The position numbers and the translations under genes are program-made. Below the pieces are notes generated by a model. It saw only the letters and a program-made list of their open reading frames with translations. It had not been told where the DNA came from and made no database searches. From a plasmid, in the sequence record NZ_CP082221.1: DNA of 64,000 nucleotides; one strand, given 5' to 3'. Positions 6,854-29,183 of the stretch are shown one piece after another (within the stretch, counting starts at the first letter, position 1; each line of letters begins with the position of its first letter).

Positions 6854-7426
6854 ATGGAAAATTTATTATTGAATTCTCCTACATCTAAAGATTTCTTCAA
6901 AATGAATTTTAAAGAATTGTTGAATAATTATTGGCTCGCAATATTGGTGTCAATAGTATTTTTAATATTCGCATTTAATCAGAATTTTTTTATAGATGAA
7001 GTCACATATACCTTGAAACTAGCTTCAATTGCTTTAGCTGGATTAACTTTTGCAACTTTTATGATAAAGATTAATAAAATTGAGGATCTTTCAAGAAAGC
7101 TAACGGATGATGGGGTTTTAACTCTAATAAACATATTATCTGTTTATCCAGAATATGTTGAGAATGTTAAGGCAAAATTGAGAAAGAGTAACAAGCTAAT
7201 AGTACATGATATTTTAATTATTAGATGGGATTTTAATAATCAAATTTCTGAAATTTTAAAAATGGGTAATTTTACTAGCGATAAAAATAAAACAGATGAA
7301 ATTTCAATAAGTAGTATCGAGGATTTACGAACAACAAAGAATAAATTGAGTTTGTTATTAGTTGACCTTGATATTTCGATTAAAGCTCAGGAGGCATTTA
7401 CATGGAAACAAAGCATCCAGAAGTAA
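6854..7426 (+). CDS. membrane protein (190 aa)
   Basis: Translationally coupled to the 6592 ORF. GAGGT SD. Two TM segments. Confidence 0.55.
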   Translation: MENLLLNSPTSKDFFKMNFKELLNNYWLAILVSIVFLIFAFNQNFFIDEVTYTLKLASIALAGLTFATFMIKINKIEDLSRKLTDDGVLTLINILSVYPEYVENVKAKLRKSNKLIVHDILIIRWDFNNQISEILKMGNFTSDKNKTDEISISSIEDLRTTKNKLSLLLVDLDISIKAQEAFTWKQSIQK

Positions 7427-8776: not shown

Positions 8777-8857
8777 TGTTCAGCTTTAAATAAGTCTTAT
8801 CAGTCTAGATAGGACTTAATTTTCATACTGGAGCTCTAAGGCTTAAGGTGTAGATAT

Positions 8858-9370
8858 ATGAAATCTAATTTTATGAGCATTCACAGTTTGATTCTTAAGA
8901 GCTCATTCTTAAGCTTTAGCTTATTACTTGTTGGATGCAACTTTCCGTTGGGCGCTAAGCCTTATGAACCTTTCGAGTATGTACTTGGTGAAAAAATTAT
9001 TAGGTCCTTAAAGGAATGTTCAACCGACATACAAAAGATTTTAAAAATTTGCAGCCCAGCAGCATCAAAGCAACAGATCAGTCAGGCCATTTCAAAATGC
9101 CCGGATGTGAAATTTGAGTTTGAAAAAATACTAACCCCTAGTGTTGTATTGAGAGAGGTTAAACCGGCTCAAGTTTTAACTGTTAATAAGCTAAACAGCT
9201 TATTAAACGAATGCATGAAAAAAGCAAAGCCTAATTTACCGGATGAAAAAGATAAGGTGATAGCTGCACAACTTAGCGTTATAGCTGAAGCAAAATACAA
9301 AGACATAATCCAAGACAAAAAGATTCATGGTGATGAAAATCTAATGTTTGAAGAAGATAATGCTGAATAA
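8858..9370 (+). CDS. lipoprotein (lipobox LLVGC)
   Basis: Motif B upstream. Signal peptide plus Cys at the lipobox position. Confidence 0.6.
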   Translation: MKSNFMSIHSLILKSSFLSFSLLLVGCNFPLGAKPYEPFEYVLGEKIIRSLKECSTDIQKILKICSPAASKQQISQAISKCPDVKFEFEKILTPSVVLREVKPAQVLTVNKLNSLLNECMKKAKPNLPDEKDKVIAAQLSVIAEAKYKDIIQDKKIHGDENLMFEEDNAE

Positions 9371-9425
9371 TTATCTATTTTTTAGTAAAGAAAATTGAAG
9401 AGCCGAAGGGCTTATGGAGTTAGCT

Positions 9426-9755
9426 ATGTTTGATGAAGATATTAGACCACTTATGATAGCGGTTTATGCACTTTTTATTATGTTTCTTCTATATTTAATG
9501 GCTGGTGTGGTTTTAACAGGCATTAATAATATCAAACCCAAAAAAGATCAGTACGGCCAGTCCTGTCATAAAGTAGGTATTTTCACAGATTGGACATGTC
9601 CTTCAGATACTGAGCAATATAAACAACTGAAAAAAGAAGGCTGTAAACTTGTCACTGTTATTGAGCCAAAAGAAACAGATTATATAAAACAGTATCGATA
9701 TATGTGTCGGGAAAATAAAGAATATATTCTAAATTTTGAATATAAAGGTTTGTAA
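9426..9755 (+). CDS. small membrane protein
   Basis: Motif B GAGCCGAAGGGCTTATGGAG. The real ATG is 9426 (track 9414 is the SD ATGGAG). Two conserved Cys pairs. Confidence 0.5.
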   Translation: MFDEDIRPLMIAVYALFIMFLLYLMAGVVLTGINNIKPKKDQYGQSCHKVGIFTDWTCPSDTEQYKQLKKEGCKLVTVIEPKETDYIKQYRYMCRENKEYILNFEYKGL

Positions 9756-9791
9756 GTTTTTTCAATGAGCTTAATAGCTTGAGGAGTTCAC

Positions 9792-10520
9792 ATGAATATC
9801 AAGACAAATTCAATGGCACCAGAAAATGATCAGAAGCCAAATACTGAAGATTTTTTTCTTCAGTATCAAAATTCAAAAATTGTTCAAGATGATAATTTTC
9901 TAAAGCAACGATATGCGGATTATGAACAATTATTCAATAACGCAGTTCAGTACACACCAATTTCAGAAAGTAATTTTCTTTTTTTGCAAAAGAGAATGCG
10001 GATTTATGGCTTAATTTTAATAGTCTGTATTGCATTAAATGCCATCATTACATTTTGTATTATTTATAAATTATTCTTTCAAGATTATTACACATCTATA
10101 GGTATGAGTGAGCAATTTAAGACTTTATTTGCTGGAACATTCAGTTGGGCTCTTGAGGTAGGCATTGTCTCATTTGTTTTGGCTATGCTATTTAAAGATA
10201 AACTTAGAACACTTTATTTAAAATATTCAATACGAAATGACTATTTAGAAGAAGTAGTTAACTACACATTTACACCAGTAATCCCGCAAGACTTTGAAAA
10301 AATCAAAGATTTTTCAACGTTAGACTCACAGTTAAAAGAAAAGATCCTTGAAGTAACTGAATATAGGAATGGGAAATTGCTTGATATTGATTTTAAAGAG
10401 TTAAATATTGAGTCAATTCTTAATTGTAGAGCTGAGATTAATCACGTTCTGAAAAATCATTTAGATTATGAGGAAAAAACTCAAAGCATCTTAGAAAGTA
10501 TTAAATCTGATAAGGTTTAA
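9792..10520 (+). CDS. membrane protein (242 aa)
   Basis: Motif B variant GAGCTTAATAGCTTGAGGAG upstream. Two TM. Confidence 0.55.
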   Translation: MNIKTNSMAPENDQKPNTEDFFLQYQNSKIVQDDNFLKQRYADYEQLFNNAVQYTPISESNFLFLQKRMRIYGLILIVCIALNAIITFCIIYKLFFQDYYTSIGMSEQFKTLFAGTFSWALEVGIVSFVLAMLFKDKLRTLYLKYSIRNDYLEEVVNYTFTPVIPQDFEKIKDFSTLDSQLKEKILEVTEYRNGKLLDIDFKELNIESILNCRAEINHVLKNHLDYEEKTQSILESIKSDKV

Positions 10521-10524
10521 GAGC

Positions 10525-10710
10525 ATGAATACTAATAAGATAATGTTTTGTATTTGTCTGTTCGTTCTTGGCCTAGTAACACTATTCTCCATTTGGCTAG
10601 GCTATACAATCGTAATCCAGGCATCAACAGGCGCGGTTCCTTATCCGGGAAGAATGGTAATTATATTAATTATCCTGGGCGCTATAACCATGTTCCTTTT
10701 AAAGGGTTAA
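10525..10710 (+). CDS. small 2-TM peptide (61 aa)
   Basis: Starts 5 nt after the 9792 gene stop. Hydrophobic. Confidence 0.45.
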   Translation: MNTNKIMFCICLFVLGLVTLFSIWLGYTIVIQASTGAVPYPGRMVIILIILGAITMFLLKG

Positions 10711-10754
10711 AGAAATACAAATTTTACTGAGCTGAAGAGCTTAAGGTGATACTG

Positions 10755-11357: not shown

Positions 11358-11894
11358 ATGAAAAAACTAGCTGTAATGATCGCCATTGCTTCGATATTAT
11401 CTGGTTGTATGACAAAAGATAGTCTTAATACCTTAAAAAAATTGGTTGTAGAAAAAGAAATAAAAGATTATGTAGCAAGCAATTATCCGATTGAGTCGCT
11501 AGAAATTGATCAATTAAGTTCAGAAATTTACGATAATTGCATGGATGTAATTAATATCAGTCAACTTTCGCTTGTTAAAATTGAATTAAATAAGGAAACA
11601 AGGTATGTCTTGAAATCAAGTGTAGATACACAACCATTAAAAAAATGTGTAGATAATTATTTAGCAAAAAAACCTGTCTCAAACGATGCAATGGAAGCTC
11701 TAATTTCGAATCCTTATTATGAAAAATACAAGAATGAACCTGACGTAAGAGAAATAATTAATAAAGCAAAGATAGACAATCTTATAACCTATCATGAGCA
11801 AAAGGAAATACTTGATTTAGTTAGAAATAAACGTCTCAATCAAGCTCTAGCCGAAAACAAAATTTGGTATCAGAAACAAATTCATGATCTTTAG
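11358..11894 (+). CDS. lipoprotein (ILSGC lipobox), intact paralog of 10755/10886
   Basis: Motif B GAGCTGAAGAGCTTTAGGAG upstream. Signal peptide plus lipobox. Confidence 0.6.
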   Translation: MKKLAVMIAIASILSGCMTKDSLNTLKKLVVEKEIKDYVASNYPIESLEIDQLSSEIYDNCMDVINISQLSLVKIELNKETRYVLKSSVDTQPLKKCVDNYLAKKPVSNDAMEALISNPYYEKYKNEPDVREIINKAKIDNLITYHEQKEILDLVRNKRLNQALAENKIWYQKQIHDL

Positions 11895-11951
11895 TGTGTG
11901 GTAATTAGCCAGGTGTCTTCACAATAATTTAATATCTGTTGGAAATATTTT

Positions 11952-12374
11952 GGCGTTCCCTACGGGCCGGGCTAGTTGGCTTCGCTCGAACTCCAAGCGA
12001 AAAAGAGGATCCATCGAGTTTAAAATCTAGTTTCATGCAAAGCCTGAACCTGATTTTAATACTCGATTCAAATCCTCTTTTTTTACGCTTGTATTTCGCC
12101 CCTTACGGGCAACATCCCTAACGCAGCATGATCGGATGCTGTTTATCTTTAAAATTGAATCTAGGGGCAATTAGAGCGATTTAGAGGGCTATTTGTCGCA
12201 ACCCTGCGGGATTGCTTTGTTATTACCGGATAAGGTCCAATGGGAGAAGTTTCACTTCTTCGGTCGTCTAGTCAAAATCACAGATTTTGACTGACTCGCT
12301 CGAAGTTTGAAACGGTAATCAAGGAGGGGGATGCTCGCAAATTTCATCAGTTCGCAACGTGGACACGTTGCTCT
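11952..12374. repeat. 423-bp GC-rich noncoding repeat element, copy 1
   Basis: Near-identical to 16890-17310, with a 3-bp indel. About 48% GC versus about 33% for the flanks. Multiple perfect hairpins (GTCAAAATCacagGATTTTGAC, GCAACGTGgaCACGTTGC). Confidence 0.8.
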
Positions 12375-12395
12375 ATGATAAACGTGCAAAACAAA

Positions 12396-12421
12396 AAGAG
12401 GTTGTGTTAACACAACCTCTT
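12396..12421. terminator. bidirectional palindromic terminator AAGAGGTTGTGttaaCACAACCTCTT
   Basis: Perfect 11-bp stem flanked by A/T runs on both strands. Sits just after the higA stop on the minus strand. Confidence 0.5.
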
Positions 12422-12430
12422 AGGTCTATC

Positions 12431-12730
12431 TTAAATAGATATAGCAACATGCTTTCCGTTAGGTAACTCAACATCTAACCTTACTTTGCCACCCATAGCT
12501 TCAACATATTCTTTTAATGATGAAATCTTAAGATCTTTACCTAATTTTTCACGTTTTGAAATAGCAGCTTGGCTTACACCTAGATTTTTTGCAATTTCAG
12601 CTTGAGATATTTTTAACTCTTCCCGTAGGTTCGATAGGTTAATATCCAATAGCATTTGATTTGCCATTTTCTTGATGCGTTGTTGGCTTTCAGGTGAGCG
12701 TTTTGAAATTATATCGTTTAATTTAGCCAT
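12431..12730 (-). CDS. higA: XRE-family HTH antitoxin (HigA-like)
   Basis: 99 aa with an HTH (LGVSQAAISKRE). Follows the toxin gene with a 1-nt overlap. Confidence 0.75.
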   Translation of the reverse strand: MAKLNDIISKRSPESQQRIKKMANQMLLDINLSNLREELKISQAEIAKNLGVSQAAISKREKLGKDLKISSLKEYVEAMGGKVRLDVELPNGKHVAISI

Positions 12731-13089
12731 TATTTATCTCCGTAATTATCACGTAAATATTGCTCATATTGTTCATCTGCAATCTTGATCATTTCTTTAT
12801 AAAAGGCTTTTTCATTTAGCCCTTTCTTATCTCCAGCACACAAAACAATGGCTTTACGTTCTGGATCAAATGCAAAGAAACCACGGATCGGATGACCTTT
12901 AACTTGCACACGTATCTCTTTCATGTTCGGATATTTTGATTCTTTAATAGTATCAACATGAGGCCGGCCTAGATTTGGCCCCAGTTCTGACAAAACAAGC
13001 AAAGACGCTAAGATTTTATCTTGAGCATTTTCATCTTGTTCTGCCAACCAAGAATCAAAAAGTTCTGTTGTTTCTACATCCCAAGCCAT
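12730..13089 (-). CDS. higB: RelE/HigB-family addiction-module toxin
   Basis: 119 aa. Toxin-first order is typical of higBA. The family call rests on overall resemblance. Confidence 0.65.
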   Translation of the reverse strand: MAWDVETTELFDSWLAEQDENAQDKILASLLVLSELGPNLGRPHVDTIKESKYPNMKEIRVQVKGHPIRGFFAFDPERKAIVLCAGDKKGLNEKAFYKEMIKIADEQYEQYLRDNYGDK

Positions 13090-13119
13090 TACAAATCATC
13101 ATAAAGTTGATACTTTATT

Positions 13120-13166
13120 TTATAACCTTTAGGTTATATTTGCAAGCATAACCTTTAGGTTATATT
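13120..13166 (-). promoter_or_regulatory. candidate higBA operator: two copies of ATAACCTTTAGGTTATATTT, each containing the palindrome TAACCtttAGGTTA
   Basis: Direct repeat with internal inverted repeat read at 13123-13136 and 13149-13162, just upstream of higB. Confidence 0.4.
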
Positions 13167-13289
13167 TATGTTTAAGTATTTGTTTATATTGCGTTAATAA
13201 ATTTGTAAGTGGTCGAGAATGTGTTATAATTTAAAGGTGAAATCGGATAGGCTGGTTTCAAATGAGCAGAAATGCTTAAGGTGAATATT

Positions 13290-13856
13290 ATGAAAAAAGC
13301 AACTCTTATAACTAACAATCTAGGCCATCTAGTTTGTTCAGACTCACTAATTTTCAAGTCCAAACTTACAGGCAAAACAATTTACTTATCACCCTCTCAT
13401 TTATCGGCACGAATTTTTGAAAAAAACTCAAAAAAGCTAAAATGGGAATATTTTAATTGCTGGTCTGATGGGCTGAATCTGGTAAAAGAAATATTTAATA
13501 AAGAGCTTATAGAAAAAGAGAAAACTACCGCATTCAAAGAAAAACTTATTCCAGGTTCAATTCTTGTTTCTAGCTGGGGATCAGAACAAACAAACGTAAG
13601 TTTTTATCAAGTAATTTCATCTACTGCAAAGACTGTAACACTTCGGGAGATTGAAAAATATCGTTTTGAAGAAGACATGAGAGGATGGGTTACTCCAAAA
13701 CCGAATGAATTTATAGGGCCAGCATTTAGAAAGAAAATAGAGTCTGAATATGTTCAGATTGGAAATCGTGAAATTGCTAGATTATTAAAATTTACGGTCA
13801 TAGATGAAACTGGAACAAAAGTTTATGAGCGTCAAAAATTCACTAGCTACGCTTAA
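13290..13856 (+). CDS. hypothetical protein (188 aa)
   Basis: Full cassette: -10 TATAAT 13225-13230, motif A 13239-13259, motif B 13265-13284, ATG 13290. Confidence 0.55.
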   Translation: MKKATLITNNLGHLVCSDSLIFKSKLTGKTIYLSPSHLSARIFEKNSKKLKWEYFNCWSDGLNLVKEIFNKELIEKEKTTAFKEKLIPGSILVSSWGSEQTNVSFYQVISSTAKTVTLREIEKYRFEEDMRGWVTPKPNEFIGPAFRKKIESEYVQIGNREIARLLKFTVIDETGTKVYERQKFTSYA

Positions 13857-13904
13857 GACATATATTTTAGCCGTTGCGGATCCGCAACGGCTACGGAGGT
13901 AAAT

Positions 13905-14087
13905 ATGGACCGCGAACACTTCATGGATTTTTTCAGAAATGATGAAAAACTTGAACAACTAACACCAGATGATCGGATAGAAATTTTTTTGAACGTTTTA
14001 CTAGGCAGTAGTGATATAGATGTAAAACTTCTAAATGAACTTTTAAACAATTATGATATTAGAAATATCGTAATTAGTGAAAAATAA
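13905..14087 (+). CDS. small hypothetical protein (60 aa)
   Basis: GGAGG SD 7 nt upstream. Preceded by the extended palindrome 13870-13891. Confidence 0.4.
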   Translation: MDREHFMDFFRNDEKLEQLTPDDRIEIFLNVLLGSSDIDVKLLNELLNNYDIRNIVISEK

Positions 14088-14153
14088 TCAAATATGAATG
14101 AATCGGATAGGCTGATTCTATTAATATTGAGCTGATAAGCTTAAGGTGAGTTA

Positions 14154-14852
14154 ATGAAATACTTTATAGCAAATTTATATTTTTATACCCGTAAAGAGCT
14201 TCTAGCAATTGCTGATGGAAAAGATGAGCTTGTTGATTTTCTAGATAGAATAAAAGGTTCTGAGTTAGAAAGCGCGAAACTTACAAGTGCAGAACGTGCA
14301 TTTTTGAATGTTTATCAATCTGCTGTGTCAAATACTTTGGAGATGATGAACATTGATGTATCTACATCTAGCTGGATGATTGGCAATGGTTTTTACGTCC
14401 CTTCTATGGTTGAAGATTATAACAAAACAAATATTTCTATTTTAGAAGTAGTACTGTTTTGTAATATCACAGCATTAAAAACATTGATCAAAACTGATAC
14501 TGCAATAATCGAAACAAGGTTTGTTGAGTTTCTAATTAAGTACGTTGAAAAAATAGAATCGGTACATTGCTCAGATGATAAAATTTTTAAATTAGAACTA
14601 GGAAATAAGTATGAGTTTGAGTTACATCAGGAAGGATACATTTTCGTAGAAAGAATTTCAGATGATGAAATTTTTAATGAACAATTTCTAGATTCAGAAA
14701 TTTTGATAAGTTTGCTGTATGCGAAAGAAAATGAGAATGAGATTATTCCAGTAGGTACTTTTCACAGTGTCTCAGGGGTATATGATGCACTTGATTTTAA
14801 AAGTGCTATTAAACCTCTTTTACCAGATATTGAGTTGCTGGCATCTTTCTAA
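14154..14852 (+). CDS. hypothetical protein (232 aa), paralog of the 15441 gene
   Basis: Motif A (14100-14118) and motif B upstream. Aligns with 15441 (GNGFYVPS.../NGFFFPVN...; ELGNKYEFELHQEGYIF/IGNKLEFDLQTEGYVF). Confidence 0.6.
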   Translation: MKYFIANLYFYTRKELLAIADGKDELVDFLDRIKGSELESAKLTSAERAFLNVYQSAVSNTLEMMNIDVSTSSWMIGNGFYVPSMVEDYNKTNISILEVVLFCNITALKTLIKTDTAIIETRFVEFLIKYVEKIESVHCSDDKIFKLELGNKYEFELHQEGYIFVERISDDEIFNEQFLDSEILISLLYAKENENEIIPVGTFHSVSGVYDALDFKSAIKPLLPDIELLASF

Positions 14853-14854
14853 AC

Positions 14855-14884
14855 AAACGGGCAATAATGCCCGTTTTTTTTTTA
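14855..14884 (+). terminator. rho-independent terminator AAACGGGCAataaTGCCCGTTT + T10
   Basis: Perfect stem plus a long T-run. Confidence 0.65.
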
Positions 14885-14990
14885 AATTAAATTTATATTA
14901 AAACAAAAATATGTTTTTGATGTATAATAATTAAAGGAAGTTGGATAGGCTAACTTCAAAATTTGAGCTGAAAAGCTTATGGTGATTAAT

Positions 14991-15374
14991 ATGAAAGACA
15001 ATAATCTAAAAGATTTATTCCAGTTCCTCTTAAACCATAAAAAACTCATCCAGTGTGGGATTACAGTTAGTCAGGGCAGCTACTCAATTACCGATCTTAA
15101 TGAAGGTGTTTGTGTTTTGGTTGAACGAAATGTTCCATTCAAAGAATATTTATCTTTTCTAGAAATTATGGATAAATGGCCTGAGAAAAATAATGATCAA
15201 GGTTATACAGTTAGAATTGAAGGCGAGGATCCCTCAGAGATATACCTTGACTATTATGAGAATAACAAAAACATGTATGGCAATTGTTCATATGGCAAGA
15301 AACGATGGGATCTGATTTTATTTGTCTATCAAGAACTATTGGAAGCAAAGGAAGTCAGCTATTTAGAGGCTTGA
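14991..15374 (+). CDS. hypothetical protein (127 aa)
   Basis: Cassette: TATAAT 14923-14928, covarying motif A GAAGTTGGATAGGCTAACTTC 14937-14957, motif B, ATG 14991. Confidence 0.55.
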   Translation: MKDNNLKDLFQFLLNHKKLIQCGITVSQGSYSITDLNEGVCVLVERNVPFKEYLSFLEIMDKWPEKNNDQGYTVRIEGEDPSEIYLDYYENNKNMYGNCSYGKKRWDLILFVYQELLEAKEVSYLEA

Positions 15375-15440
15375 ATAAAGCAAAAGCAAAACCCTTTTTG
15401 AAACTTTTTAACATGAGCTGAAGAGCTTAAGGTGGCATAA

Positions 15441-16199
15441 ATGAACTTACAAGACTTAATTAGCGAAAATGAATTTTTTATCAGGAATCTTAATGTAGCT
15501 CAGTATGACAGGCTGGATGAGTTGACAAATTTAGATGAATATAAATCTGAATTTTTGGACAAAATTAGAAAACTCAATTTTGGCAGTAATGAAAACAGAC
15601 TTTTGCAAATTTTAGCGCAAGACGTTTTTGAGGAAGTTTACGAATACTGTGTATATCAAACCTTTGTAGAATGTTGCATGAATACAAAATGGATGACTGC
15701 AAATGGTTTTTTCTTTCCAGTTAATTTTGATCTAAACGAAAAATATTATGAAGATCCAGAAGCGGGATATGTGATAAATACATTCGATGTGATCATTAGT
15801 GCAAATCTCCATGCAATATACCAAGTAAGACATAATGGAAAGGTATATTTTGATGAACATCAAGAAGAGATTCTACAGTTTTGGGCTGACTACCTTATCG
15901 ATATTTTACGTCGAAATAAGCGTCAGGCAGACAAGTTTATTATAGGTAATAAACTAGAATTTGATCTTCAAACTGAAGGGTATGTATTTCCGTTAGATAT
16001 GGATGAAGATACATTTTATCAAACATTTAACGAAGCAGAAATTAACTTCTATATCCTTCAGCAGAGTGGAAAAGACTACAAGATAGAGAAGTTTACTAAC
16101 ACGTACAATAACGGTGGAGCAGAAGAAAGTAAGATGGCTTTTGAATGTTTCTTAAAGTTCTATCCATACACAGACTTAACTTTAATAGCCAATTTTTAA
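15441..16199 (+). CDS. hypothetical protein (252 aa), paralog of 14154
   Basis: Motif B GAGCTGAAGAGCTTAAGGTG upstream. Confidence 0.6.
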   Translation: MNLQDLISENEFFIRNLNVAQYDRLDELTNLDEYKSEFLDKIRKLNFGSNENRLLQILAQDVFEEVYEYCVYQTFVECCMNTKWMTANGFFFPVNFDLNEKYYEDPEAGYVINTFDVIISANLHAIYQVRHNGKVYFDEHQEEILQFWADYLIDILRRNKRQADKFIIGNKLEFDLQTEGYVFPLDMDEDTFYQTFNEAEINFYILQQSGKDYKIEKFTNTYNNGGAEESKMAFECFLKFYPYTDLTLIANF

Positions 16200-16250
16200 A
16201 CTTAAGGGGCTTCCCAACGGAGGCCCTATTTATTTAACAAAGGTGAAAGT

Positions 16251-16586
16251 ATGAAAGACCTAAATGTACATGAAAATATTGACGAAATTGGTGTCAGAGC
16301 TGCTCAATTATCTTCGTTTATAGTTGTATTAACAGGAGCAGCAATAATCTGTATAAGCGCAACTAAAACGAAAGCTGGATTAAGTGTCGTTATGAAAGAT
16401 CTGTTCCCATCTAATATATATGTATTAGTTGCTTTAATGGTGATGAGCTTTATCTTATGTACTTTTTCATTATTGAAAAATAATAAAGATAAGCATGTTT
16501 CATTTATTAAAGAGTTCTTTCGGCACATTGGTATACAAAGTGGAGCAATAATTATCATATTTGGTTTACTTTCAAGAATTTTATAA
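16251..16586 (+). CDS. membrane protein (111 aa, 3 TM)
   Basis: AAGGTG SD. Hydrophobic. Confidence 0.5.
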   Translation: MKDLNVHENIDEIGVRAAQLSSFIVVLTGAAIICISATKTKAGLSVVMKDLFPSNIYVLVALMVMSFILCTFSLLKNNKDKHVSFIKEFFRHIGIQSGAIIIIFGLLSRIL

Positions 16587-16889
16587 AGATAAAATCTAAA
16601 AAAGGGTAACTATAACGTGATAAAAAATTTCAAATTTATAGCTGTAATTAGATCTAATGGTGCGGATCCGCAACCATGAGGATTTAGATATGAAAATTAC
16701 AAACAGAAGAAGAAGTGAGATTAGAAAAAATTTATGGAAATGGTGTTCTATTTGCATAATTTTTTTAAGTTTAATCATCATTTTTTTTAGTTTGAAAGTG
16801 GATATTTTCGGAGTTATTTAATGGATCTGATTATGATGTTTGTTGGGTTTTGTGCTTTTGTTTTATGGATTATTCATGGTGTAAAATAG

Positions 16890-17310
16890 GGCGTTCCCTA
16901 CGGGCCGGGCTAGTTGGCTTCGCTCGAACTCCAAGCGAAAAAGAGGATCCATCGAGTTTAAAATCTAGTTTCATGCAAAGCCTGAACCTGATTTTAATAC
17001 TCGATTCAAATCCTCTTTTTTTACGCTTGTATTTCGCCCCTTACGGGCAACATCCCTAACGCAGCATGATCGTGCTGTTTATCTTTAAAATTGAATCTAG
17101 GGGCAATTAGAGCGATTTAGAGGGCTATTTGTCGCAACCCTGCGGGATTGCTTTGTTATTACCGGATAAGGTCCAATGGGAGAAGTTTCACTTCTTCGGT
17201 CGTCTAGTCAAAATCACAGATTTTGACTGACTCGCTCGAAGTTTGAAACGGTAATCAAGGAGGGGGATGCTCGCAAATTTCATCAGTTCGCAACGTGGAC
17301 ACGTTGCTCT
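16890..17310. repeat. 423-bp GC-rich noncoding repeat element, copy 2
   Basis: See copy 1. Confidence 0.8.
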
Positions 17311-17450
17311 GCAAATGTATTTTATAATACGAAAAATTACACTAAATATATGTTTTTTCTTAATAAAAAGACATGAAAATGTAGTATAATTAAGGGGTGA
17401 AATCGGATAGGCTGGTTTCTATATATGAGCTGAAAAGCTTAAGGTGTACT

Positions 17451-17765
17451 ATGAAAATTTATACAAAAATTGCCCTTAATTACTTCAGAAATTTAATTTC
17501 TGCATGTGGAAAAGAACATGGGATATTTTTCTCAGAATCACCACAAAATCCAAAACATTTAGTAGCCAATGACGCTATTTATTTCATTACTCAAATTGAT
17601 GACTCAATTGTATTTATTGATTGTAAATATGGTCCAGTTTCAACTTATCGGATAGATGGAATTTTAGATTTTACATCTAATTCTATAGAGGATGCCGCTC
17701 AAATTGCTACTAATAATTTTCGTCTAATCTGTGAAAATCATTACACTATCTTGAATTGTGAATAA
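17451..17765 (+). CDS. hypothetical protein (104 aa)
   Basis: Cassette: TATAAT 17385-17390, motif A 17399-17419, motif B 17427-17446, ATG 17451. The track start 17397 lies in the leader. Confidence 0.5.
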   Translation: MKIYTKIALNYFRNLISACGKEHGIFFSESPQNPKHLVANDAIYFITQIDDSIVFIDCKYGPVSTYRIDGILDFTSNSIEDAAQIATNNFRLICENHYTILNCE

Positions 17766-17800
17766 TAAAAATTTGAGCTGTAAAGCTTATGGAGATCAAA

Positions 17801-18298
17801 ATGAAAAAATGGTTTAGTTCTGATGTAAACAACGTTGATGATTTAAAGAATGAATACCGAAAACTTTGCTTTAAACATCATCCAGACATGGGCGGCTCGA
17901 CTGAAGATATGCAAGCCATAAATTCAGAATATGAGCAGCTTTTAAAAGTTCTAATTAATACAAAGGCAGACAGTAACTATTCAGAGAAATCTACTTTTAA
18001 AAACCGAGATGAAGAAATTGATGCAGAAATTCGTTTGAGAGAAGTTCTAGAAAAGTTAGAAATCTTGGAAGGGTTAGAGATTGAGAGAATAGGACTATGG
18101 TTATATGTTTCAGGCAATACAAAAGCGCATAAGGAAGCATTAAAAGAGGCTGGTTTAAAATGGGCACATGCTAGAAAACTTTGGATATATGTTGGTACAG
18201 AATGCAGAGGACGAGGAAACAAAGATATGGACGAGCTTAGAGCAAAATACGGAAATGAAAAGGTAAAAACTAGAAGCAAAATTAAGAAAATTGCTTAA
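17801..18298 (+). CDS. J-domain (DnaJ-like) protein
   Basis: YRKLCFKHHPDMGG carries the HPD motif. No Zn-finger or C-terminal DnaJ domains. Motif B upstream. Confidence 0.7.
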   Translation: MKKWFSSDVNNVDDLKNEYRKLCFKHHPDMGGSTEDMQAINSEYEQLLKVLINTKADSNYSEKSTFKNRDEEIDAEIRLREVLEKLEILEGLEIERIGLWLYVSGNTKAHKEALKEAGLKWAHARKLWIYVGTECRGRGNKDMDELRAKYGNEKVKTRSKIKKIA

Positions 18299-18310
18299 CT
18301 ATTTTCTACA

Positions 18311-18341
18311 AAAAAAAGCCGACATAATCGGCTTTTTTTTA
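18311..18341 (+). terminator. rho-independent terminator (AAAAAAAAGCCGAcataaTCGGCTTTTTTTT)
   Basis: Perfect hairpin plus T-run. Confidence 0.65.
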
Positions 18342-18443
18342 CTTAAAATGTATAATTTCAACAACATAAATGATATAATTTATTTGTGAAATCGGATAGG
18401 CTGATTTCGAATTTTTGAGCTGAAAAGCTTATGGAGTTTTAAG

Positions 18444-18728
18444 ATGTATGCAATAGTTGATTCAAATATGAATGTCATTGATGCTTCGATTTGTAAAATT
18501 AAATTAGAATATAAATTGGCTGATAAATTGTTTTGGATAGCTCACAATTTTGGTCGTCAAGCTGAAGGAGTTAAGCAAGATGAATTTGAAATAGATGAAC
18601 TAAGTGATCCAGAAGTATGCAATGCTATTCACATGGCTTATCAAAATGCTTTTGACTATAAGAAGAATGAAATTAGTGATAGTTATAAAATCGTAAAATG
18701 GGATAGTAAACAGGCAATTTGGATTTAA
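18444..18728 (+). CDS. hypothetical protein (94 aa)
   Basis: Complete cassette: TATAAT 18374-18379, motif A 18388-18408, motif B, ATG 18444. Confidence 0.5.
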   Translation: MYAIVDSNMNVIDASICKIKLEYKLADKLFWIAHNFGRQAEGVKQDEFEIDELSDPEVCNAIHMAYQNAFDYKKNEISDSYKIVKWDSKQAIWI

Positions 18729-18740
18729 TTTTGAAACAAA

Positions 18741-18770
18741 AAAAAAGCCGTGAATAACGGCTTTTTTTTG
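18741..18770 (+). terminator. rho-independent terminator (GCCGTgaataACGGC + T8)
   Basis: Hairpin plus T-run. Confidence 0.65.
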
Positions 18771-18873
18771 TTTCAAAGTGATTGAATAAATTAAGGAAAA
18801 TGTTATAATTTAATCAAGAAATCGGATAGGCTGATTTCTATTTTTTGAGCTGAAAAGCTTATGGAGTTTACAA

Positions 18874-19206
18874 ATGATTAAATCAAATAATATGATCGAC
18901 ATTAAAAATCTTATCAATGAATTTCGCAATGAAACTTTATTGGAAAAAGAGAAAGTCTTTATTGATGGTAAAGACAAAAAAAGCGTTATTACTGGTTCTA
19001 AAATTTTAACTCTAGCACTTACTAAAGAGAATATTATTTATACTATTTATCATATAGAAGTATGCCGTGATGAGGAAGGCAAAACTGTCAAACGTTATAA
19101 AATCCATCAAAGAAAATCTTTAGGTTTTTCAATTCCACTTAGCTTTTTGGTAAAGCGTGAATTTGAAAAAGCTGCACCAGAAACTTTAATAAATGCTTTA
19201 ATTTGA
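18874..19206 (+). CDS. hypothetical protein (110 aa)
   Basis: Cassette: TATAAT 18804-18809, motif A 18818-18838, motif B, ATG 18874. Confidence 0.5.
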   Translation: MIKSNNMIDIKNLINEFRNETLLEKEKVFIDGKDKKSVITGSKILTLALTKENIIYTIYHIEVCRDEEGKTVKRYKIHQRKSLGFSIPLSFLVKREFEKAAPETLINALI

Positions 19207-19899: not shown

Positions 19900-19960
19900 T
19901 GCGGGACACCCCGCTCATTTTTTTTCTCACACACCACGCACCTAACGGTGCTTTTAGCTC
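19900..19960 (-). other. oriT: candidate oriT (nic region on minus strand)
   Basis: The minus strand reads ...GCACCgttaGGTGC GTGGTGTGTGAG... This is an inverted repeat followed by a GGTGCGTGGTGTG-like core, resembling R388/F nic regions. An upstream IR GCGGGacacCCCGC (19901-19914) is also present. It lies immediately beside the RHH/TraD/TrwC genes. Confidence 0.5.
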
Positions 19961-20271: not shown

Positions 20272-20823
20272 ATGAAATTTAAAAAAATGCATCAAAGTGC
20301 TACAATTTTTTCATCTTTTGTTTATCCACAGCTCTTGAGGAGTGTCAAACTCATGACCCAAAAGAAAGTTTCAATTGGAGGTAAGGTTAGCCCTGAAATT
20401 AAGAAATACTATGATGATATGGCTAATAGATTAGGAATCTCTACAAGTCAGTTACTTGAAAAAATCTTAATTGAAAACCTTACATTATCTAAAGTCCAAA
20501 TCTTAATTGATGACTTTGACAACAAAGTCAATTATATGGTCGAGCTTATCAATCAGAGTTTTACGAACCAATCTCATTTTATTGATGAAAAATTTGATAT
20601 CTCAAATTCTAGTTTAGCTAAGTTGATTTATGAAAACGGTTTGAATAAACAAACTGAAGAGTTCATTGCTACTTTAACTTTCTTGGAAGCTGCTAAATAT
20701 AAAAATCTGCCATTAGTTAAAGACTTTAATAAACGCGAAACCACTGGTGAAGCTCTCTTTTTACAAGCATCAAAAGAAGCTAGAGAGTCAGTTGCTAAAC
20801 GTCGTAATCAATCAGAGGCTTAA
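20272..20823 (+). CDS. putative ribbon-helix-helix relaxosome accessory protein
   Basis: N-terminal KKVSIGGKVSPEIKKYYDDMANRLGISTSQLL resembles TraY/TrwA-type RHH. Sits upstream of traD. Confidence 0.4.
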   Translation: MKFKKMHQSATIFSSFVYPQLLRSVKLMTQKKVSIGGKVSPEIKKYYDDMANRLGISTSQLLEKILIENLTLSKVQILIDDFDNKVNYMVELINQSFTNQSHFIDEKFDISNSSLAKLIYENGLNKQTEEFIATLTFLEAAKYKNLPLVKDFNKRETTGEALFLQASKEARESVAKRRNQSEA

Positions 20824-20827
20824 TTGA

Positions 20828-22987
20828 ATGAAAGCAAAGAATAACTCAAAAGCAATCGAATTTACGAGAGGTTCTGAAATATGGATTCATCAATTTCGAA
20901 TGTTTATTTCAAGCATGATGAATGTCATAGTTTTTGGCCTGATGATTACGATTGGCATTGTATGTGCATTTCTATACATTAAATTAAAGGATGTTCATTT
21001 TCTTGCTTTAAGTGTGCAATACGATATTTGGTTAAAGTCAGTATTTAATAATCCAGATGCGAGAGTAGCATTGAAGCTAAATGGTGTTGTACGTGATTAC
21101 ACTCTTGATCAAGCTCAGCACATTATTAATCCCTATTTTAACCAATTAAAGTTTTATGTTTTTCGAGCATTTATTTTAGGTATTCTTTTAAGCTCATTTC
21201 TAGTCGGTGGTCTTATTTATTACTGGTTTACTTATGGTAAGGAAGTAATGTCTGATGAACAAATTCGTGGTTCAGAACTAGTTTCTAATGACGCATTAAT
21301 TTATAAAATCCAAAGTACGAAAGGATTCAGTCCATATAAAATTTCTAACATACCTATGGTAAAAAATACAGAAGGTACGAATGTTGGTATTTTTGGTGCT
21401 CCTGGTTCTGGTAAGTCTCAAATTTTTAGAGATCATTTATCTCAGGTTAGAAGCAATAAAAGAAAAGCTATCGTTTATGATCCTTCAGGAGAATTCACTT
21501 CAGAATTTTATCGACCAGGTATAGATATTATTCTAAATCCATTTGATGAACGTATGCCGTATTGGTCACCATTTTTTGAAATTCGTCATGATGAGCATTT
21601 CGATAGTATTGCTAATGCTTTTGTTCCAGTTGAGGGTAAAGATCCTTATTTTGGCGAAGCTGGTAGAACAGTATTAGCTGAAGTCATGCGTGAATTACAT
21701 GCTAATGGTATACACTCAAATAAGACTCTCCATGACACAATTGCACATTTTACTATTGAAGAAATATCGTCTGTGCTTGAGGGAACGGCTGCTTCAAAGC
21801 ATGTTGATAAAAAAGCTGAAAAGACGGCACTGGCTGTTCTTACAACAGTACAAAATAAATTAAGAGCATTTCGCTATTTACCAGATTCCGGTACACAGTT
21901 TTCTATACGTGATTGGGTAAGTCGGCCTGAAGAAGACTCATGGATTTTCCTTTCGCTTAGAGAAGAACAGAAAACTACTATTGAACCACTTATTACGTTG
22001 TGGTTTTCAATATTCATTAAAGCCGTAATGAACTTAGAACCAATACATCGTGAACTATTATGGATGTATTGTGATGAGTTCCCAACTCTACCAAAAATGG
22101 ATGATTTACCTTTATCTCTTACAAATACTCGTAAATTCGGTTTATGTCATTTTTTAGGACTACAAGATATTCCTCAACTTGAAGAAAAGTACGGAGAAAA
22201 AATTGCTCGTTCAATAATTTCAGCTTTACAAACGAAAGTGTTCTATCGAGTTAATGAAAATGAAACTGCGAAAAGAATGTCTGAAATTCTTGGACAGATG
22301 GAAGTTGCTGAAAAAAATATGTCTAGAAGTATGGGGGTTAATGATTCAAGAGACGGTGATAGTTTTATTACTCAAAGGAGAGAACGCTTTATTGTTTTAC
22401 CATCTGAAATTATGAAGTTGCCAGATCTAACAGGATACTTAAGAGTTCCTGGTGATTATCCAGTTACGAAGATTACTCAGAAATATCATCCTCACTTAAA
22501 AAATGTTCCAGCATTTATAGAACGAGAAAATATGGGTTTCATTTCTGCGTTTGCGGTTGCTGAAGCTTTAGAATCCCAATCGAATTCTGATGGAAAAGAG
22601 CCATTAGTAGAACAACAAAATGAAGAAGGCAATTTCTTTGGGAATTCTACTGAGCCACTTGTTGGAAATAGTAGTTTCTTTGGGAAATCTAATACAACCT
22701 CTGAAATTATTTATGAAAATTCACCTTTAGATTTATTTCATTCTCAAACAGAAGATAGTGATTTATCACTTAATGAAAAAAACGGTATTCAACCAGATGA
22801 AATAATCCCGGACGAAGATGAAAAGCCTAAAGTTGTTAATAATGACAGACTACATACTTTTGCCAGCTATCTTGCCGCAACCGATGAATCAAGTGCTCAG
22901 AAAAATAATGACGTTACTCCTGACACTAATTCAAGTAATGATTCTAATGAATCTAGTTTTAAAGACTTGTTCAATAACAATGATTAG
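20828..22987 (+). CDS. traD: type IV coupling protein TraD (F-type)
   Basis: Walker A GAPGSGKS. Long collinear similarity to F TraD (IVYDPSGEF...ILNPFD; LPDLTGYLRVPGDYPVTKITQKY). Confidence 0.9.
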   Translation: MKAKNNSKAIEFTRGSEIWIHQFRMFISSMMNVIVFGLMITIGIVCAFLYIKLKDVHFLALSVQYDIWLKSVFNNPDARVALKLNGVVRDYTLDQAQHIINPYFNQLKFYVFRAFILGILLSSFLVGGLIYYWFTYGKEVMSDEQIRGSELVSNDALIYKIQSTKGFSPYKISNIPMVKNTEGTNVGIFGAPGSGKSQIFRDHLSQVRSNKRKAIVYDPSGEFTSEFYRPGIDIILNPFDERMPYWSPFFEIRHDEHFDSIANAFVPVEGKDPYFGEAGRTVLAEVMRELHANGIHSNKTLHDTIAHFTIEEISSVLEGTAASKHVDKKAEKTALAVLTTVQNKLRAFRYLPDSGTQFSIRDWVSRPEEDSWIFLSLREEQKTTIEPLITLWFSIFIKAVMNLEPIHRELLWMYCDEFPTLPKMDDLPLSLTNTRKFGLCHFLGLQDIPQLEEKYGEKIARSIISALQTKVFYRVNENETAKRMSEILGQMEVAEKNMSRSMGVNDSRDGDSFITQRRERFIVLPSEIMKLPDLTGYLRVPGDYPVTKITQKYHPHLKNVPAFIERENMGFISAFAVAEALESQSNSDGKEPLVEQQNEEGNFFGNSTEPLVGNSSFFGKSNTTSEIIYENSPLDLFHSQTEDSDLSLNEKNGIQPDEIIPDEDEKPKVVNNDRLHTFASYLAATDESSAQKNNDVTPDTNSSNDSNESSFKDLFNNND

Positions 22988-22998
22988 GTAGGTAGATA

Positions 22999-25900
22999 AT
23001 GCTAAGTGTTAACAATGTAGTTGAATCTGGAAAGGCTTTGTCTTACTACCAATTAGATAATTATTATACTAATGAGCAACAATCATTGGATCAAACTGAA
23101 TGGTATGGTCGTGGTGCTCAAGTATTAGGTATTAATGGTGAACAAATTGAGGCAAATACTTTTAAAGACTTGCTAGAAGGTAGAGTAGAAGATCAACAGT
23201 TGGGGCGAGTTAGGAAAGATGAAAATGGTCAAAGTTATATTGATCATAGAGCTGGTATAGATTTAACGTTTAGTGCTCCAAAATCTGTTTCGATAATGGC
23301 AGAGGTTTTTGAAAATCAAGATGTGCTACAAGCACATCTTGATGCTGTTAAAGATACTATTTCCGCTATTGAAGATCATTACACGCAAACTAGAATCAGT
23401 GTTGATGGCACAATTCAAAAATCAGAGAGTGATAATTTAGTTGTTGCTCTTTTTAATCACAATACTAGTAGAGCATTGGATCCGCAAACTCATACACATG
23501 CAGTTGTTATGAACATGACTTTAAATGATAAAGATTCATGGACGGCATTAAGTAACGAAGTAATTTATGATAATCAGGCAACCATAGGTTCGATATATAA
23601 TTCTAATCTCGCTCAAAATTTAAGAGCTATAGGTCTTGATGTAGAGGTAAAAGATAATCAGGGCAATTTTGAAATTGCCGGCTTTACTCCAGAAATGATA
23701 CAAGAGTTTTCTCAGCGAAGAACTCAGATTATTGAAAGTTTAAAAAGTAGAGGAATTGATATTGAAGATGCACCTGCTAGTTTGAGAGAACAAGCAGCTT
23801 TAAAAACACGGGAAAGGAAACAGGCATTTAATGAGGCTGAATTACGTCAAGTTTGGAAGGAACGTGCAAGTGAACTTGGCATTACACAAAGTTTTGTAGA
23901 TAAGCTAGAAGATAAAATTAAAACGAATCAGATGAATGCGGATCCGCAACCTTCAGAAAAAAACCAAAAAGACATATGGAAAACCGGATCCTCAAAAAAT
24001 GATCCGAATATATCATTTGAAGGGAAAACGGAAGTTTCTAGCGATAAATCTAATAACGCTGATAAAGAAGCACCAGATAAACGAATTGACAACTCTGAAA
24101 CGCAAAATCCGAGCGATAGCGCCATATCAAATGAAAAAGCTAGTCAAGTATCAGGAAAATCCCAAAAAGAGCCAGAAACGCAAAATATGGGCCAAGAAGC
24201 GCATATTCAAGATGAAGTTAGATTGGGTAAGAAACAAACTGAACCTAAAGCGAGTAACAATTCAAAAGACCAGACTGTACCTAGAGAACGACCTTATCAA
24301 AGAAAGAATCGTGAATCTCAACAAGTACTCATAAGCCAAAAAACAAAAGAAGCCGTTTACTACGCTATAGGGCATCACACCGAAAGAGAAATGATGATAC
24401 CTGAAACAAAGATACTAAATACGGCTATGAAATTTGACATACAAGAAGTAACTCATGAACAAGTACGAGCTGAGTTAAATAGACTAGAAAAAGAAAAAAT
24501 CATCGTCCGGGTAGATGGGAAGTTAACAACTCAGCGTTTGGCACATAGCGAAGTTTGGTCGTTACAACATATACAAAATGAACAAAAAAGCGTGAGTCCA
24601 ATAGTGGATGAATCTCAAGTTAAAACAAGACTCGATCAAGAGGAACAGTTGAGAGGGAGGAAGTTTACACCCGGACAAAGAGCAAGTCTTGAAACAATAT
24701 TTAGTTCTGAAAGTAGATATATAGGCGTAGACGGTTTAGCTGGTACGGGTAAAACTACAATGCTGCATACTTTGAATAAAGTAGCCTCAGAAAACGGTTT
24801 TATTGTTAAAGGTATGGCCGCCACTGGCGTAGCTGCTAAAAACTTAGAATTGGAAACTGGTATACCCTCAAAAACAATGGCCATGTTTCAGATTAAAGAA
24901 AATGAGCTTCAGAAAGAAATTGAAAAGAATGGGGGAGTAAACCGTAAAAATGAAATCTGGATAGTTGATGAATCTTCATTTGTAAGCCAGACAAACTTCA
25001 AAGACATTTTGACTTTGGCTAAGCAAGCTAATAGTCGTGTTGTTTTTTTAGGGGATAAATTGCAGCTTCAGTCAATTAGTGCAGGAAAACCATTTGAACT
25101 TGTACAAAATAGAGGTGTGCTAAAAACTTCACAAATGCATGACATTATCCGTCAAAAAAACCAGGAACTTAAAGACGTGGTTTCTGTTGTCGTTGCAAAA
25201 AACAAAGAAGGTAAAATTGATTTAAGTAACAACGATAAAGCTTTTGATTTACTTGATAAACAGCAAAGGATTCATGAAGTAGTTGTAGCTGCAAAGGGTA
25301 CACAACCAGCTCTACATGAGCAGCATGACTTATTTCAGGAAATTCATGAAGTACATCAAAAATTAGTTGGTGATTATATGAGGCTTAATAAGGAATCAAG
25401 AGATAATAGCCTTATCATTACTCCCTTTAACTCAGATAGAGTAATGCTGAACTCACTTGTAAGAAGCGAAATGAAAAAACTAAATGAATTAGATCATAAT
25501 GATCATAATTTTGAGATCTTAGTAAATACCAATTTCACTGAAGCGGAGCGTAAACATATTAATAATTATGAGCCTAATATGACGATACGTTTTGGGAAAT
25601 CATTTACAGATAAAGACACAGGAATCAAAATTGAAAAAGGTGACTATCTAAAAGTAATGATGAAAGACAAAGAAGGTAAATTGGTATTAATTGATAAGGA
25701 TAAAAATAAAATTAAATGGAACCCTAAAAAAGGAAGTGTAGAAGTATATAAATCAGAACAAAGAAAGATAGCTAAGGGAGATGTAATAAGAATTACCCGG
25801 ACAAAAGATGATGAACAGATCAAGAATGGTGAAAGATATAAAATCAAGGATATTCATGAAGATAAAGTAATAGTAGAAGGCCAGGATGGGAAAGAGAAAA

Positions 25901-27980: not shown

Positions 27981-28017
27981 ATAATTCACCTTAAGCTCTT
28001 CAGCTCGTATGTTGAAA

Positions 28018-28296
28018 CTATCCGTATTTTCTTTTTACAACAGAATTGTAAAAATTAATGAGGATATGGATTAAAGAAAAAATTGTAAATAGAATTAAAA
28101 ATATGATACTTGCTATTTTATTAATAGAAAGTGTGGTTGTAAAAAAAACTAATGAAGCTTTAATTCCTATTCCACACATTAAACTTAAACCAATTAAAGA
28201 AGTATCAAATTCTTCAAAGTCATCCTTAAAAAGAAAACTCAGTGATTGCAACAATAAAAAACTTGAAAGATATAGAGTAAGTGTAAAACTATCCAT
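28018..28296 (-). CDS. small 3-TM protein
   Basis: GAAGG SD. Hydrophobic. Confidence 0.45.
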   Translation of the reverse strand: MDSFTLTLYLSSFLLLQSLSFLFKDDFEEFDTSLIGLSLMCGIGIKASLVFFTTTLSINKIASIIFLILFTIFSLIHILINFYNSVVKRKYG

Positions 28297-28310
28297 TGTA
28301 ATAACCTTCT

Positions 28311-28760: not shown

Positions 28761-28985
28761 GTTTAACTCCATAAGCTTTTCAGCTCTAAAATTTTGGTAT
28801 TGGTTAATTAATTTGTAATATTGAAGGCGGAAAATTGGATTGAATTAACATAAATGATAATGCTAACACCGCTGCAAGACATGGTGTCACATGATTATTA
28901 AATCTATGGATAAATAATATATGCCAGCCCATTAAAATTGAAATTCCTGTTAAATAGAATAATGGACCAATTTATTAACCCTCTC

Positions 28986-29183
28986 TTACTGATTAAATTT
29001 AATTGAAAAACCAATGCCATTTATACTCAGAAATAGACCGATAATTAAAGTCATATGGCCTACATTTTGAACCCATAAATCATTTTGATACTTTTTAGAT
29101 TTGTACCAATACAAACCTACCAAAATAAATAGTACACCTAATGCTGTAATAATTAGCGTAATTAAACTAAATTTAAACCCCAT
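28986..29183 (-). CDS. small 2-TM protein
   Basis: Motif B variant GAGCTCAATAGCTTAAGGAG upstream. Confidence 0.5.
   Translation of the reverse strand: MGFKFSLITLIITALGVLFILVGLYWYKSKKYQNDLWVQNVGHMTLIIGLFLSINGIGFSIKFNQ

Follow-up and report, generated by a model that had tools for sequence, protein, structure and literature searches.

Rolling-circle replication displaces the nicked strand of a plasmid as single-stranded DNA, and rolling-circle plasmids all need a single-strand origin (SSO). Plasmids of the IncQ group use their single-strand initiation (ssi) signals in vegetative replication as well as after transfer, and the single-stranded promoters of the Frpo/ssi kind reportedly go back to work of Masai and Arai in 1997. 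Frpo both primes DNA synthesis and drives transcription (PMC11541004), and SSOs function in one orientation only (PMC5703833). The element described here lies in a window of 64,000 nucleotides (nt) of the plasmid record NZ_CP082221.1 (positions are window positions unless a label beginning with L precedes them), where it is present as two direct repeats of 423 and 421 bp. The reading that we favour, with somewhat more confidence than doubt, is that its conserved right-hand ~180 nt constitute a single-strand initiation signal, Frpo-like and of a new SSO/ssi sequence class.

The window is that of a RepAci6-type conjugative plasmid of Acinetobacter baumannii, and the repeats, together with their role as a substrate for homologous recombination, are already known. 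They have been in print since 2014 as mapping landmarks, without a function (Hamidian et al. 2014, PMC3956371; PMC6751817): in the RepAci6 backbone two copies of 423/424 bp bracket a 4.7-kb segment, accompanied by a 229-bp partial copy, and the 'repeated sequences 1-3' of that backbone are the same DNA as the repeats considered here. One copy, without the 4.7 kb between the two, is found in pACICU2 (PMC3956371), a documented deletion that bears out the suggestion, in an earlier note made from the letters of the window, that the repeats might be a recombination hotspot. The papers on repeated sequences 1-3 give no structure, wider distribution or function. What is new in this analysis is the wide conservation of ~180 nt, a fold backed by covariation, its novelty with respect to Rfam, its co-divergence with neighbouring genes and its strand orientation.

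The SSOs (ssoA, ssoU, ssoT, ssoW, ssoL) are like the element in being noncoding stretches of ~130-180 nt with intrastrand pairing, placed in the noncoding region of Rep_1 plasmids; the fixed orientation, the proposed location of the active form on the displaced strand and the exchangeability of the cassette between replicons are also shared. The element differs from them in having no sequence relation to any of them (CS-6, TAGCGA/T, is absent and RSB, recombination site B, is not recognisable), in belonging to a Gram-negative genus and in being present, also in several copies, on theta and conjugative plasmids. The Frpo/ssi elements of IncF/IncI leading regions are likewise repeated ~300-400-bp, hairpin-rich noncoding units on the transferred strand (PMC11541004), and there, too, the transferred strand is the template for downstream establishment and anti-defence genes. 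In contrast to them, the element has neither sequence similarity nor a conserved -35/-10 stem pair, is also carried by non-conjugative rolling-circle plasmids and is found in both orientations in MOBQ plasmids. A hairpin combined with conserved single-stranded sequence is common to the element and to ssiA/ssiB of IncQ plasmids (RSF1010) and the G4- and phiX174-type ssi signals, and the opposite-strand pairs near the IncQ replication module have their counterpart in Rep_3 plasmids; unlike the IncQ case, no dedicated plasmid primase is evident, and the copies lie kilobases apart instead of adjacent to each other within oriV. We propose that the element would work in the manner of SSO and Frpo elements while belonging to none of the known classes.

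The repeats and their conserved unit

Copy 1 (423 bp, 11952-12374; 'repeated sequence 2/3' of the repAci6 backbone in PMC3956371 and PMC6751817) and copy 2 (421 bp, 16890-17310) are direct repeats that match at 100% on both sides of a single indel. For both, the proposed functional strand is the minus strand, which is also the predicted transferred strand. The earlier note had this near-identical pair in the right places; the indel that it gave as 3 bp is one of 2 bp (GA at 12135-12136, inside a hairpin loop), and its GC content of about 48% comes down on measurement to 45.4% in each copy, against 30.7-31.8% in the flanks and 33.5% in the whole window. The hairpins that it named all exist, the first of them with a 3-nt loop (GTCAAAATC aca GATTTTGAC), and terminal inverted repeats and target duplications are absent, as it said. 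Its description of the element as noncoding also stands, there being no conserved ATG downstream of the AAGGAGG tract: one follows the tract in the window lineage only, the 60-69-aa open reading frames (ORFs) are not conserved, and a small-ORF hypothesis was dropped accordingly. Run over the window with filters off, the covariance model finds the two copies (12247-12375, 136.9 bits; 17183-17311, 137.4 bits) and nothing else credible; a match at 9126-9207 (18.6 bits) falls within an ORF and was rejected as a third copy. In pTG22182_1 (L001), the reference of the host plasmid type, there are four copies of the conserved right-hand part in a single orientation, two of them partial (L001 5777-6141 and 8211-8436) and located in 9 kb of plasmid outside the window.

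The element is modular. Its positions ~241-423 alone are conserved beyond the RepAci6 and p2014BJAB1 lineages (BLAST matches in other families cover 237/241-423). This widely conserved unit, assigned to the minus strand, is at 12192-12374 in copy 1, where BLAST coverage, the covariance-model match and covariation define it, and at 17128-17310 in copy 2, where the covariance-model match and BLAST coverage do so. The conserved lengths of 423, 229, 183, 178 and 125 nt have one common right end and a varying left end. The unit begins with a small hairpin, GCAACCCtgcGGGATTGC, followed by a second small hairpin and a long irregular hairpin whose apex, AATCACAGATT, is invariant; then come the invariant unpaired tract CGGTAATCAAGGAGGG (across homologues CGGTAATCA(A/G)GGAGGG), a small hairpin that varies, TCAGTTCGC, which is again invariant, a terminal hairpin whose loop is commonly GTAGACAC, and a sharp end at GCTCT.

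The left ~240 nt are confined to the RepAci6 and p2014BJAB1 types and contain an imperfect hairpin of ~112 nt, not assigned to a strand, at 11987-12098 in copy 1 (self reverse-complement match, folds and alignment) and at 16925-17036 in copy 2 (self reverse-complement match). Relative to p2014BJAB1 the basal stem of this hairpin has compensatory changes (GAGGAT/ATCCTC versus CGTTGGT/ACCAACG) and its apex is conserved in sequence. To judge from these comparisons, the left part, hairpin included, is a lineage-specific structured add-on. A terminator-like hairpin with a T-rich tail (12123-12142 and 17061-17078, plus strand) stands between the left module and the conserved unit, and the 2-bp indel falls in its loop at 12123-12142; it is not kept in p2014BJAB1, and the left module was rejected as a small RNA (sRNA) on that account.

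Fold and covariation

The structure comprises 32 pairs in an alignment of 24-25 distinct homologues from plasmids, genomes and metagenomes. Standard pairs occupy 96.8% of the paired cells, compared with 80.8% in column shuffles, and sliding the partners by 1-3 columns as a control lowers pairing to 37-49%. Compensatory changes are seen in 20 of the 32 pairs, which supports the idea of structural constraint that the earlier note had offered for the base composition. On either strand the full element gives a fold much superior to those of shuffled controls (z between -5.5 and -7), and the DNA fold of a 191-nt unit has z = -4.3. The covariation and the shuffle and slide controls show that the fold is real and under selection in single-stranded nucleic acid.

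Orientation in rolling-circle plasmids

We call F form the reverse complement of the repeat sequence as it was recorded in the earlier note, and sense form that recorded sequence itself. The full unit is present in three metagenomic contigs of Rep_1 type (pC194/pUB110 family). In one (L125) the Rep_1 gene is confirmed by Pfam; another (L131) has two ORFs closely similar to the L125 Rep, with a HUH motif seen by eye, and the third (L126) has a HUH-type Rep-like ORF and a relaxase-like ORF, both assigned by eye. All six complete Acinetobacter Rep_1 plasmids that were retrieved carry the element (pTS236, p4ABAYE and four others; L159-L164 are these and relatives), in a shorter version without the long hairpin that reads GTAATCAGGGAGGG ... 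TCAGTTCG, hairpin, CTCTG, with E-values of 1e-6 to 8e-3 in a 17-kb search.

The main noncoding stretch houses the element in each of these nine rolling-circle plasmids, and rep and all the other genes are on the opposite strand. The nick motif of the double-strand origin (dso), TTTTTTCTTT..CTTGATACTATT (CTTGATA), is found on the rep strand just upstream of rep in eight of the nine; the motif is the pC194-type one as described in PMC10378824. The orientation is thus fixed, and with the dso on the rep strand and the element opposite rep, the displaced strand carries the F form. A published proposal, which relies on a CS-6-like hexamer, places the SSO of pTS236/p4ABAYE-type plasmids beside the dso (PMC10378824). 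In pTS236, p4ABAYE and their relatives the conserved, structured element sits elsewhere, between rep and the next ORF, and it may be the real SSO of these plasmids.

Strand polarity in the window plasmid

On the minus strand, positions 19951-19929 read GCACCGTTAGGTGCGTGGTGTGT/G (the stroke marks the cut), a predicted origin of transfer (oriT) nic region with the architecture of R388 (TrwC). The R388 nic site, GCACCGAAAGGTGCGTATTGTCT/A, consists of a hairpin (5 bp, with a loop of 4 nt), then 9 nt of single strand and a purine after the cut (PMC4176350). The predicted region is an island of 82% conservation between RepAci6 and p2014BJAB1 plasmids, and it is located upstream of an operon (20272-26274) of a small accessory gene, a coupling protein gene and a MobF relaxase gene. 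No oriT was found described in the RepAci6 plasmid literature searched. An R388-like nic on the minus strand would make that strand the transferred one, entering the recipient towards lower coordinates; the plus-strand genes of the type IV (T4) coupling protein (20828-22987) and the MobF relaxase (22999-26274) would then enter last.

Copy 2, which is 2.6 kb from the nick, and copy 1, which is 7.6 kb from it, both have their F form on the predicted transferred strand; the two copies outside the window are ~19.6 and 22 kb from the nick. This also applies to all four copies of pTG22182_1 and to both of p2014BJAB1. In strand polarity the window agrees with the rolling-circle plasmids. The genes downstream are on the plus strand and have the transferred strand as their template, a leading-region layout as in Frpo/ssi.

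Distribution and other plasmid contexts

The copies match 204 plasmid records at an identity of at least 99%, all of them RepAci6-type conjugative plasmids (with a MOBF relaxase and an F-type mating apparatus), mostly of A. baumannii. The right-hand unit is found in 364 plasmid records, 354 of them from Acinetobacter (blastn, word size 11, 72,556 plasmids). The right-hand unit occurs across replicon types, on rolling-circle, theta and conjugative plasmids. Rfam, which the earlier note had suggested scanning, has nothing at the gathering threshold across the whole window and only chance-level matches at E<=10 in 11800-12500. There is no match to the repeat in the phage database, and no tRNA or tmRNA was detected. 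A genome-wide scan for the pattern ATCACAGAT..CGGTAATCA gives mostly chance matches, in an ABC-transporter ATPase-like gene (lptB-like by eye), and true matches at just six Acinetobacter loci; in viral contigs the pattern scan gives one chance match and a Rep_1 protein scan none.

In the Rep_3 plasmids (L156, L055, L060, L141 and L146) two inverted copies that point outward bracket the rep module, so that one F form falls on either strand. Among the genes that follow copies in the large plasmids are those for ArdC, an orphan N6 methylase, a PAPS reductase and a J-domain protein, all of a kind typical of leading regions (PMC11541004). Plasmids of the pNDM-BJ01 type have two identical copies, inverted. 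Their predicted oriT is an RSF1010-like repeat and nick region, GTTTCTCGGAGAGAAAC GCGGAAGC GTGC, at L003 ~6938-6975; the layout (GTTTCTC gga GAGAAAC, 8 nt, GTGC; L003 ~6938-6975 and L158 8227-8292) stands directly upstream of a TraA-type relaxase gene in pNDM-BJ01-type and in small MOBQ Acinetobacter plasmids, and in pTG29392_3 the same oriT sequence precedes a relaxase 67% identical to the pNDM-BJ01-type one. Copy B of the pNDM-BJ01-type plasmids has the F form on the predicted transferred strand. A 10-mer of the terminal hairpin, GTAGACACTT, recurs at L003 7209, ~240 nt from the pNDM-type nic region, and may reflect chance (roughly 0.001-0.03) or a common protein-recognition motif.

Proposed function

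Function as single-stranded DNA, which the earlier note did not consider, fits these observations best, and orientation is the most telling pointer to it. The active form would be the F form once it is single-stranded, folded into a set of hairpins with invariant unpaired tracts between them. A host enzyme, either RNA polymerase (as at ssoA and Frpo) or DnaG primase (as at G4-type ssi), would recognise the fold and lay down an RNA primer, which DNA polymerase would extend towards the 5' end of the template. In the window plasmid the minus, transferred strand would carry four sites of this kind (two in the window), each entering the recipient after the stretch that it would convert to duplex. 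Synthesis from the F form, or a transcript reading on from it, would head for the nick, the same way as the plus-strand establishment-type genes are read, and the same sites could double as Frpo-like early promoters.

The features by which SSOs are recognised can be set beside those of the unit. It is noncoding and extensively paired within the strand (32 pairs, 96.8% paired, z = -4.3); in rolling-circle plasmids it lies outside coding regions (in the six of six Acinetobacter Rep_1 plasmids and the three metagenomic ones); and it has a single orientation relative to the dso-nicked strand (opposite rep in 9/9, with the dso on the rep strand in 8/9). A more ambitious version, possible but doubtful, makes of it a genus-wide, hitherto unrecognised Gram-negative SSO class, portable across rolling-circle, theta and conjugative plasmids, whose several leading-region copies in conjugative Acinetobacter plasmids (among them the RepAci6 and pNDM-BJ01 types, which dominate clinically) serve as start sites for the complementary strand and as single-stranded promoters for anti-defence genes.

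A number of points weigh against a single-strand initiation signal. We infer priming activity, the enzyme, the start point and a promoter role from context and orientation, and everything in the proposal rests on these. The nine rolling-circle plasmids are mutually related and so do not represent nine independent events. Copy A of the pNDM-BJ01-type plasmids, 1.1 kb from the nick, has the sense form on the predicted transferred strand, as does the single copy of the pTG29392_3-type small plasmids, 0.7 kb from nic; these MOBQ exceptions can be accommodated with an added assumption, either priming on the retained donor strand or a role in vegetative replication. The CS-6 hexamer TAGCG(A/T) is absent from both strands of the window copy and of the six rolling-circle versions; AGCGA alone is seen, in an internal loop of the long-hairpin variants. 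In the window's F form the long hairpin has, in its 3' arm, TTGACT, a 17-nt spacer and AAACTT, but -35/-10 (sigma-70) hexamers in stems are not conserved among the aligned homologues, and the stems covary. Wobble pairs do not pick a strand (~6 G-U cells against ~6 C-A cells), and in a small helix (columns 16-18 with 52-54) invariant G-U pairs are possible on the sense strand only.

Were the proposal true, this would be the first SSO/ssi class for Acinetobacter plasmids, and one portable DNA signal would link three replication lifestyles. OXA-23, NDM-1 and aphA6 spread among hospital strains on plasmids of the RepAci6 and pNDM-BJ01 types. A defined site in cis on which their establishment in a recipient depends would offer an experimental handle on duplex conversion and on the switching on of early genes, and the covariance model could serve to annotate leading regions and lagging-strand origins in stretches that are now annotated as empty.

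Other explanations

One alternative is a dedicated single-stranded promoter of Frpo type, whose fold on the entering strand would mimic a duplex promoter from which host RNA polymerase transcribes establishment and anti-defence genes ahead of complementary-strand synthesis, DNA priming not being its purpose. All copies of the MOBF plasmids are in the leading region with the transferred strand as template for the downstream genes, those genes include the ArdC, orphan methylase, PAPS reductase and J-domain protein genes already mentioned, and Frpo elements are also repeated upstream of ssb, psiB and ardA (PMC11541004). Modules of element plus gene are kept from one plasmid family to another: the gene of ~190 aa that follows copy 1 (13272-13856), for instance, resembles by eye the gene after pNDM copy B. 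We nevertheless regard this explanation as unlikely. The element is conserved in non-conjugative rolling-circle plasmids of 2-3 kb, where it points away from every gene, and expression of downstream genes cannot therefore be its common function; the alignments, read by eye, show no conserved -35/-10 hexamers in the stems, and the downstream genes each have a duplex promoter of their own. There is no similarity to the Frpo of F or ColIb, the search of 72,556 plasmids (blastn, word size 11) having given almost exclusively Acinetobacter matches and none in IncF/IncI plasmids, and thus no homology to the F/ColIb-P9 Frpo/ssi. A structured RNA from the plus (sense) strand, be it an operon leader, an element of the 3' UTR (untranslated region) for stabilisation or processing, a processive antiterminator or an sRNA, would account for the strong covariation, the sense-only G-U pairs, the resemblance of the conserved purine tract to a Shine-Dalgarno sequence and the co-orientation with flanking gene arrays in RepAci6, p2014BJAB1 and Rep_3 plasmids and at pNDM copy B. 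It, too, is improbable, and the regulatory RNA that the earlier note had listed among its candidates is accordingly disfavoured: a cis-acting RNA is difficult to square with the antisense position of the element relative to every gene in the nine rolling-circle plasmids, and the element is antisense in pTG29392_3-type plasmids as well. The variable left boundary lacks a conserved promoter and the right end a terminator, Rfam has no match even at E<=10, and in the window the element is upstream of the next operon's duplex promoter and hence outside its 5' UTR.

If instead the element were a DNA site, duplex or cruciform, to which a protein of the plasmid or the host binds (for partition, silencing, multimer resolution or another recombination), its orientation would be a minor matter and the repeats would mainly be recombination substrates. 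The two orientations relative to the transferred strand in MOBQ plasmids, the inverted pairs that bracket modules in Rep_3 and pNDM plasmids, the invariant unpaired tracts, which look like protein-recognition sequence, and the documented deletion between direct copies (PMC3956371) would suit such a site. However, covarying stems that are nested and long-range, their arms as much as ~60 nt apart, are unlike dimeric duplex binding sites; no core of XerC/XerD type was seen (by eye, against the pdif consensus), and the strictly fixed orientation in 9/9 rolling-circle plasmids also makes us consider it quite unlikely. XerC/XerD (pdif), DnaA-box hairpin and integron attC readings were dropped by eye, their defining cores being absent. 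An orphan mimic of an origin of transfer, mobilised by a relaxase in trans, would explain the presence on small rolling-circle plasmids without a relaxase, the layout of hairpin and conserved tail as in nic regions, the adjacency to the relaxase operon in pTG29392_3 and the 10-nt match GTAGACACTT near the pNDM oriT. It is very unlikely: recognisable oriTs exist elsewhere (R388-like at 19929-19951; RSF1010-like at L003 ~6938-6975 and L158 8227-8292), a nic site present up to four times in direct or twice in inverted orientation on one plasmid would be destabilising, and the element has no similarity to MOBF, MOBQ or MOBP nic cores. Least credible, and rejected, is the non-autonomous IS200/IS605-type element (a palindrome-associated transposable element, PATE, or miniature inverted-repeat transposable element, MITE) that the earlier note had put forward, with subterminal hairpins, no terminal inverted repeats, several copies and a GC content above that of the surroundings in its favour. 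The element has one fixed end, the right one, and its left end varies. Copy 2 and the genes downstream align as one block with p2014BJAB1 at 71% identity (71-72% over element and downstream genes; 16889-18447 against L002 12000-13586), and the coupling-protein and relaxase genes show the same divergence (67-71%), so that the element is syntenic and as diverged as its neighbours. No pairs of empty and filled sites were seen, the distribution is confined to plasmids, at functionally consistent positions, and the annotation of the 40 kb that surround the copies in the reference plasmid lists no transposase, neither TnpA nor TnpB (chromosomes were not searched).

Neighbouring genes and other repeated signals

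The segment between the copies (12375-16889, 4.5 kb, assigned to the plus strand) holds higBA on the minus strand and then five or six small plus-strand ORFs; plasmids of the pACICU2 type lack it and have just one copy. The higBA-type toxin-antitoxin pair (12431-13089, minus strand) and its terminator (12396-12421) lie between copy 1 and the plus-strand gene 13272-13856. A gene that resembles the latter by eye directly follows the element in pNDM-BJ01-type plasmids, and for this reason the higBA module looks like a later insertion into a unit of element plus gene. Elsewhere in the window, 1.9 kb with four small plus-strand ORFs of signal-peptide or membrane-like character (8851-10724) are missing from pTG22182_1, which is otherwise 99.6-99.98% identical to the window.

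An 18-nt motif, GAGCWGNNNNGCTTWWGG, occurs 22 times in the window, against 0.1 expected; its sites include 2187, 6567, 10729, 11332, 13264, 14129, 14965, 15415, 17427, 17775, 18417 and 18847 on the plus strand and, on the minus strand, 27989-30013. It forms a stem of 4-5 bp with compensatory variants (AGCT/AGCT, AGCC/GGCT, AGCA/TGCT) and a 4-base loop (GAAG, GAAA, GATA, GTAA or GCAA), leads directly into the Shine-Dalgarno sequence of most small leading-region ORFs, and looks like a shared RNA hairpin for translation initiation. A 19-nt motif, AATCGGATAGGCTGRTTYC, has six occurrences (46, 13241, 14101, 17401, 18390 and 18820, plus strand), with none expected. Each copy of it is placed just past a -10 box of TATAAT type (some with an upstream TG) and a few bases ahead of the GAGCTG hairpin, with which it makes up a promoter/5'-UTR cassette repeated before several operons, one of them directly after copy 2 (17375-17444). 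Terminator-like palindromes, AAAAAAAAGCCG...CGGCTTTTTTTT, at 18308-18340 and 18739-18771 separate consecutive small operons, and each is embedded in a 137-nt direct repeat of 74% identity (18310-18446 and 18740-18876).

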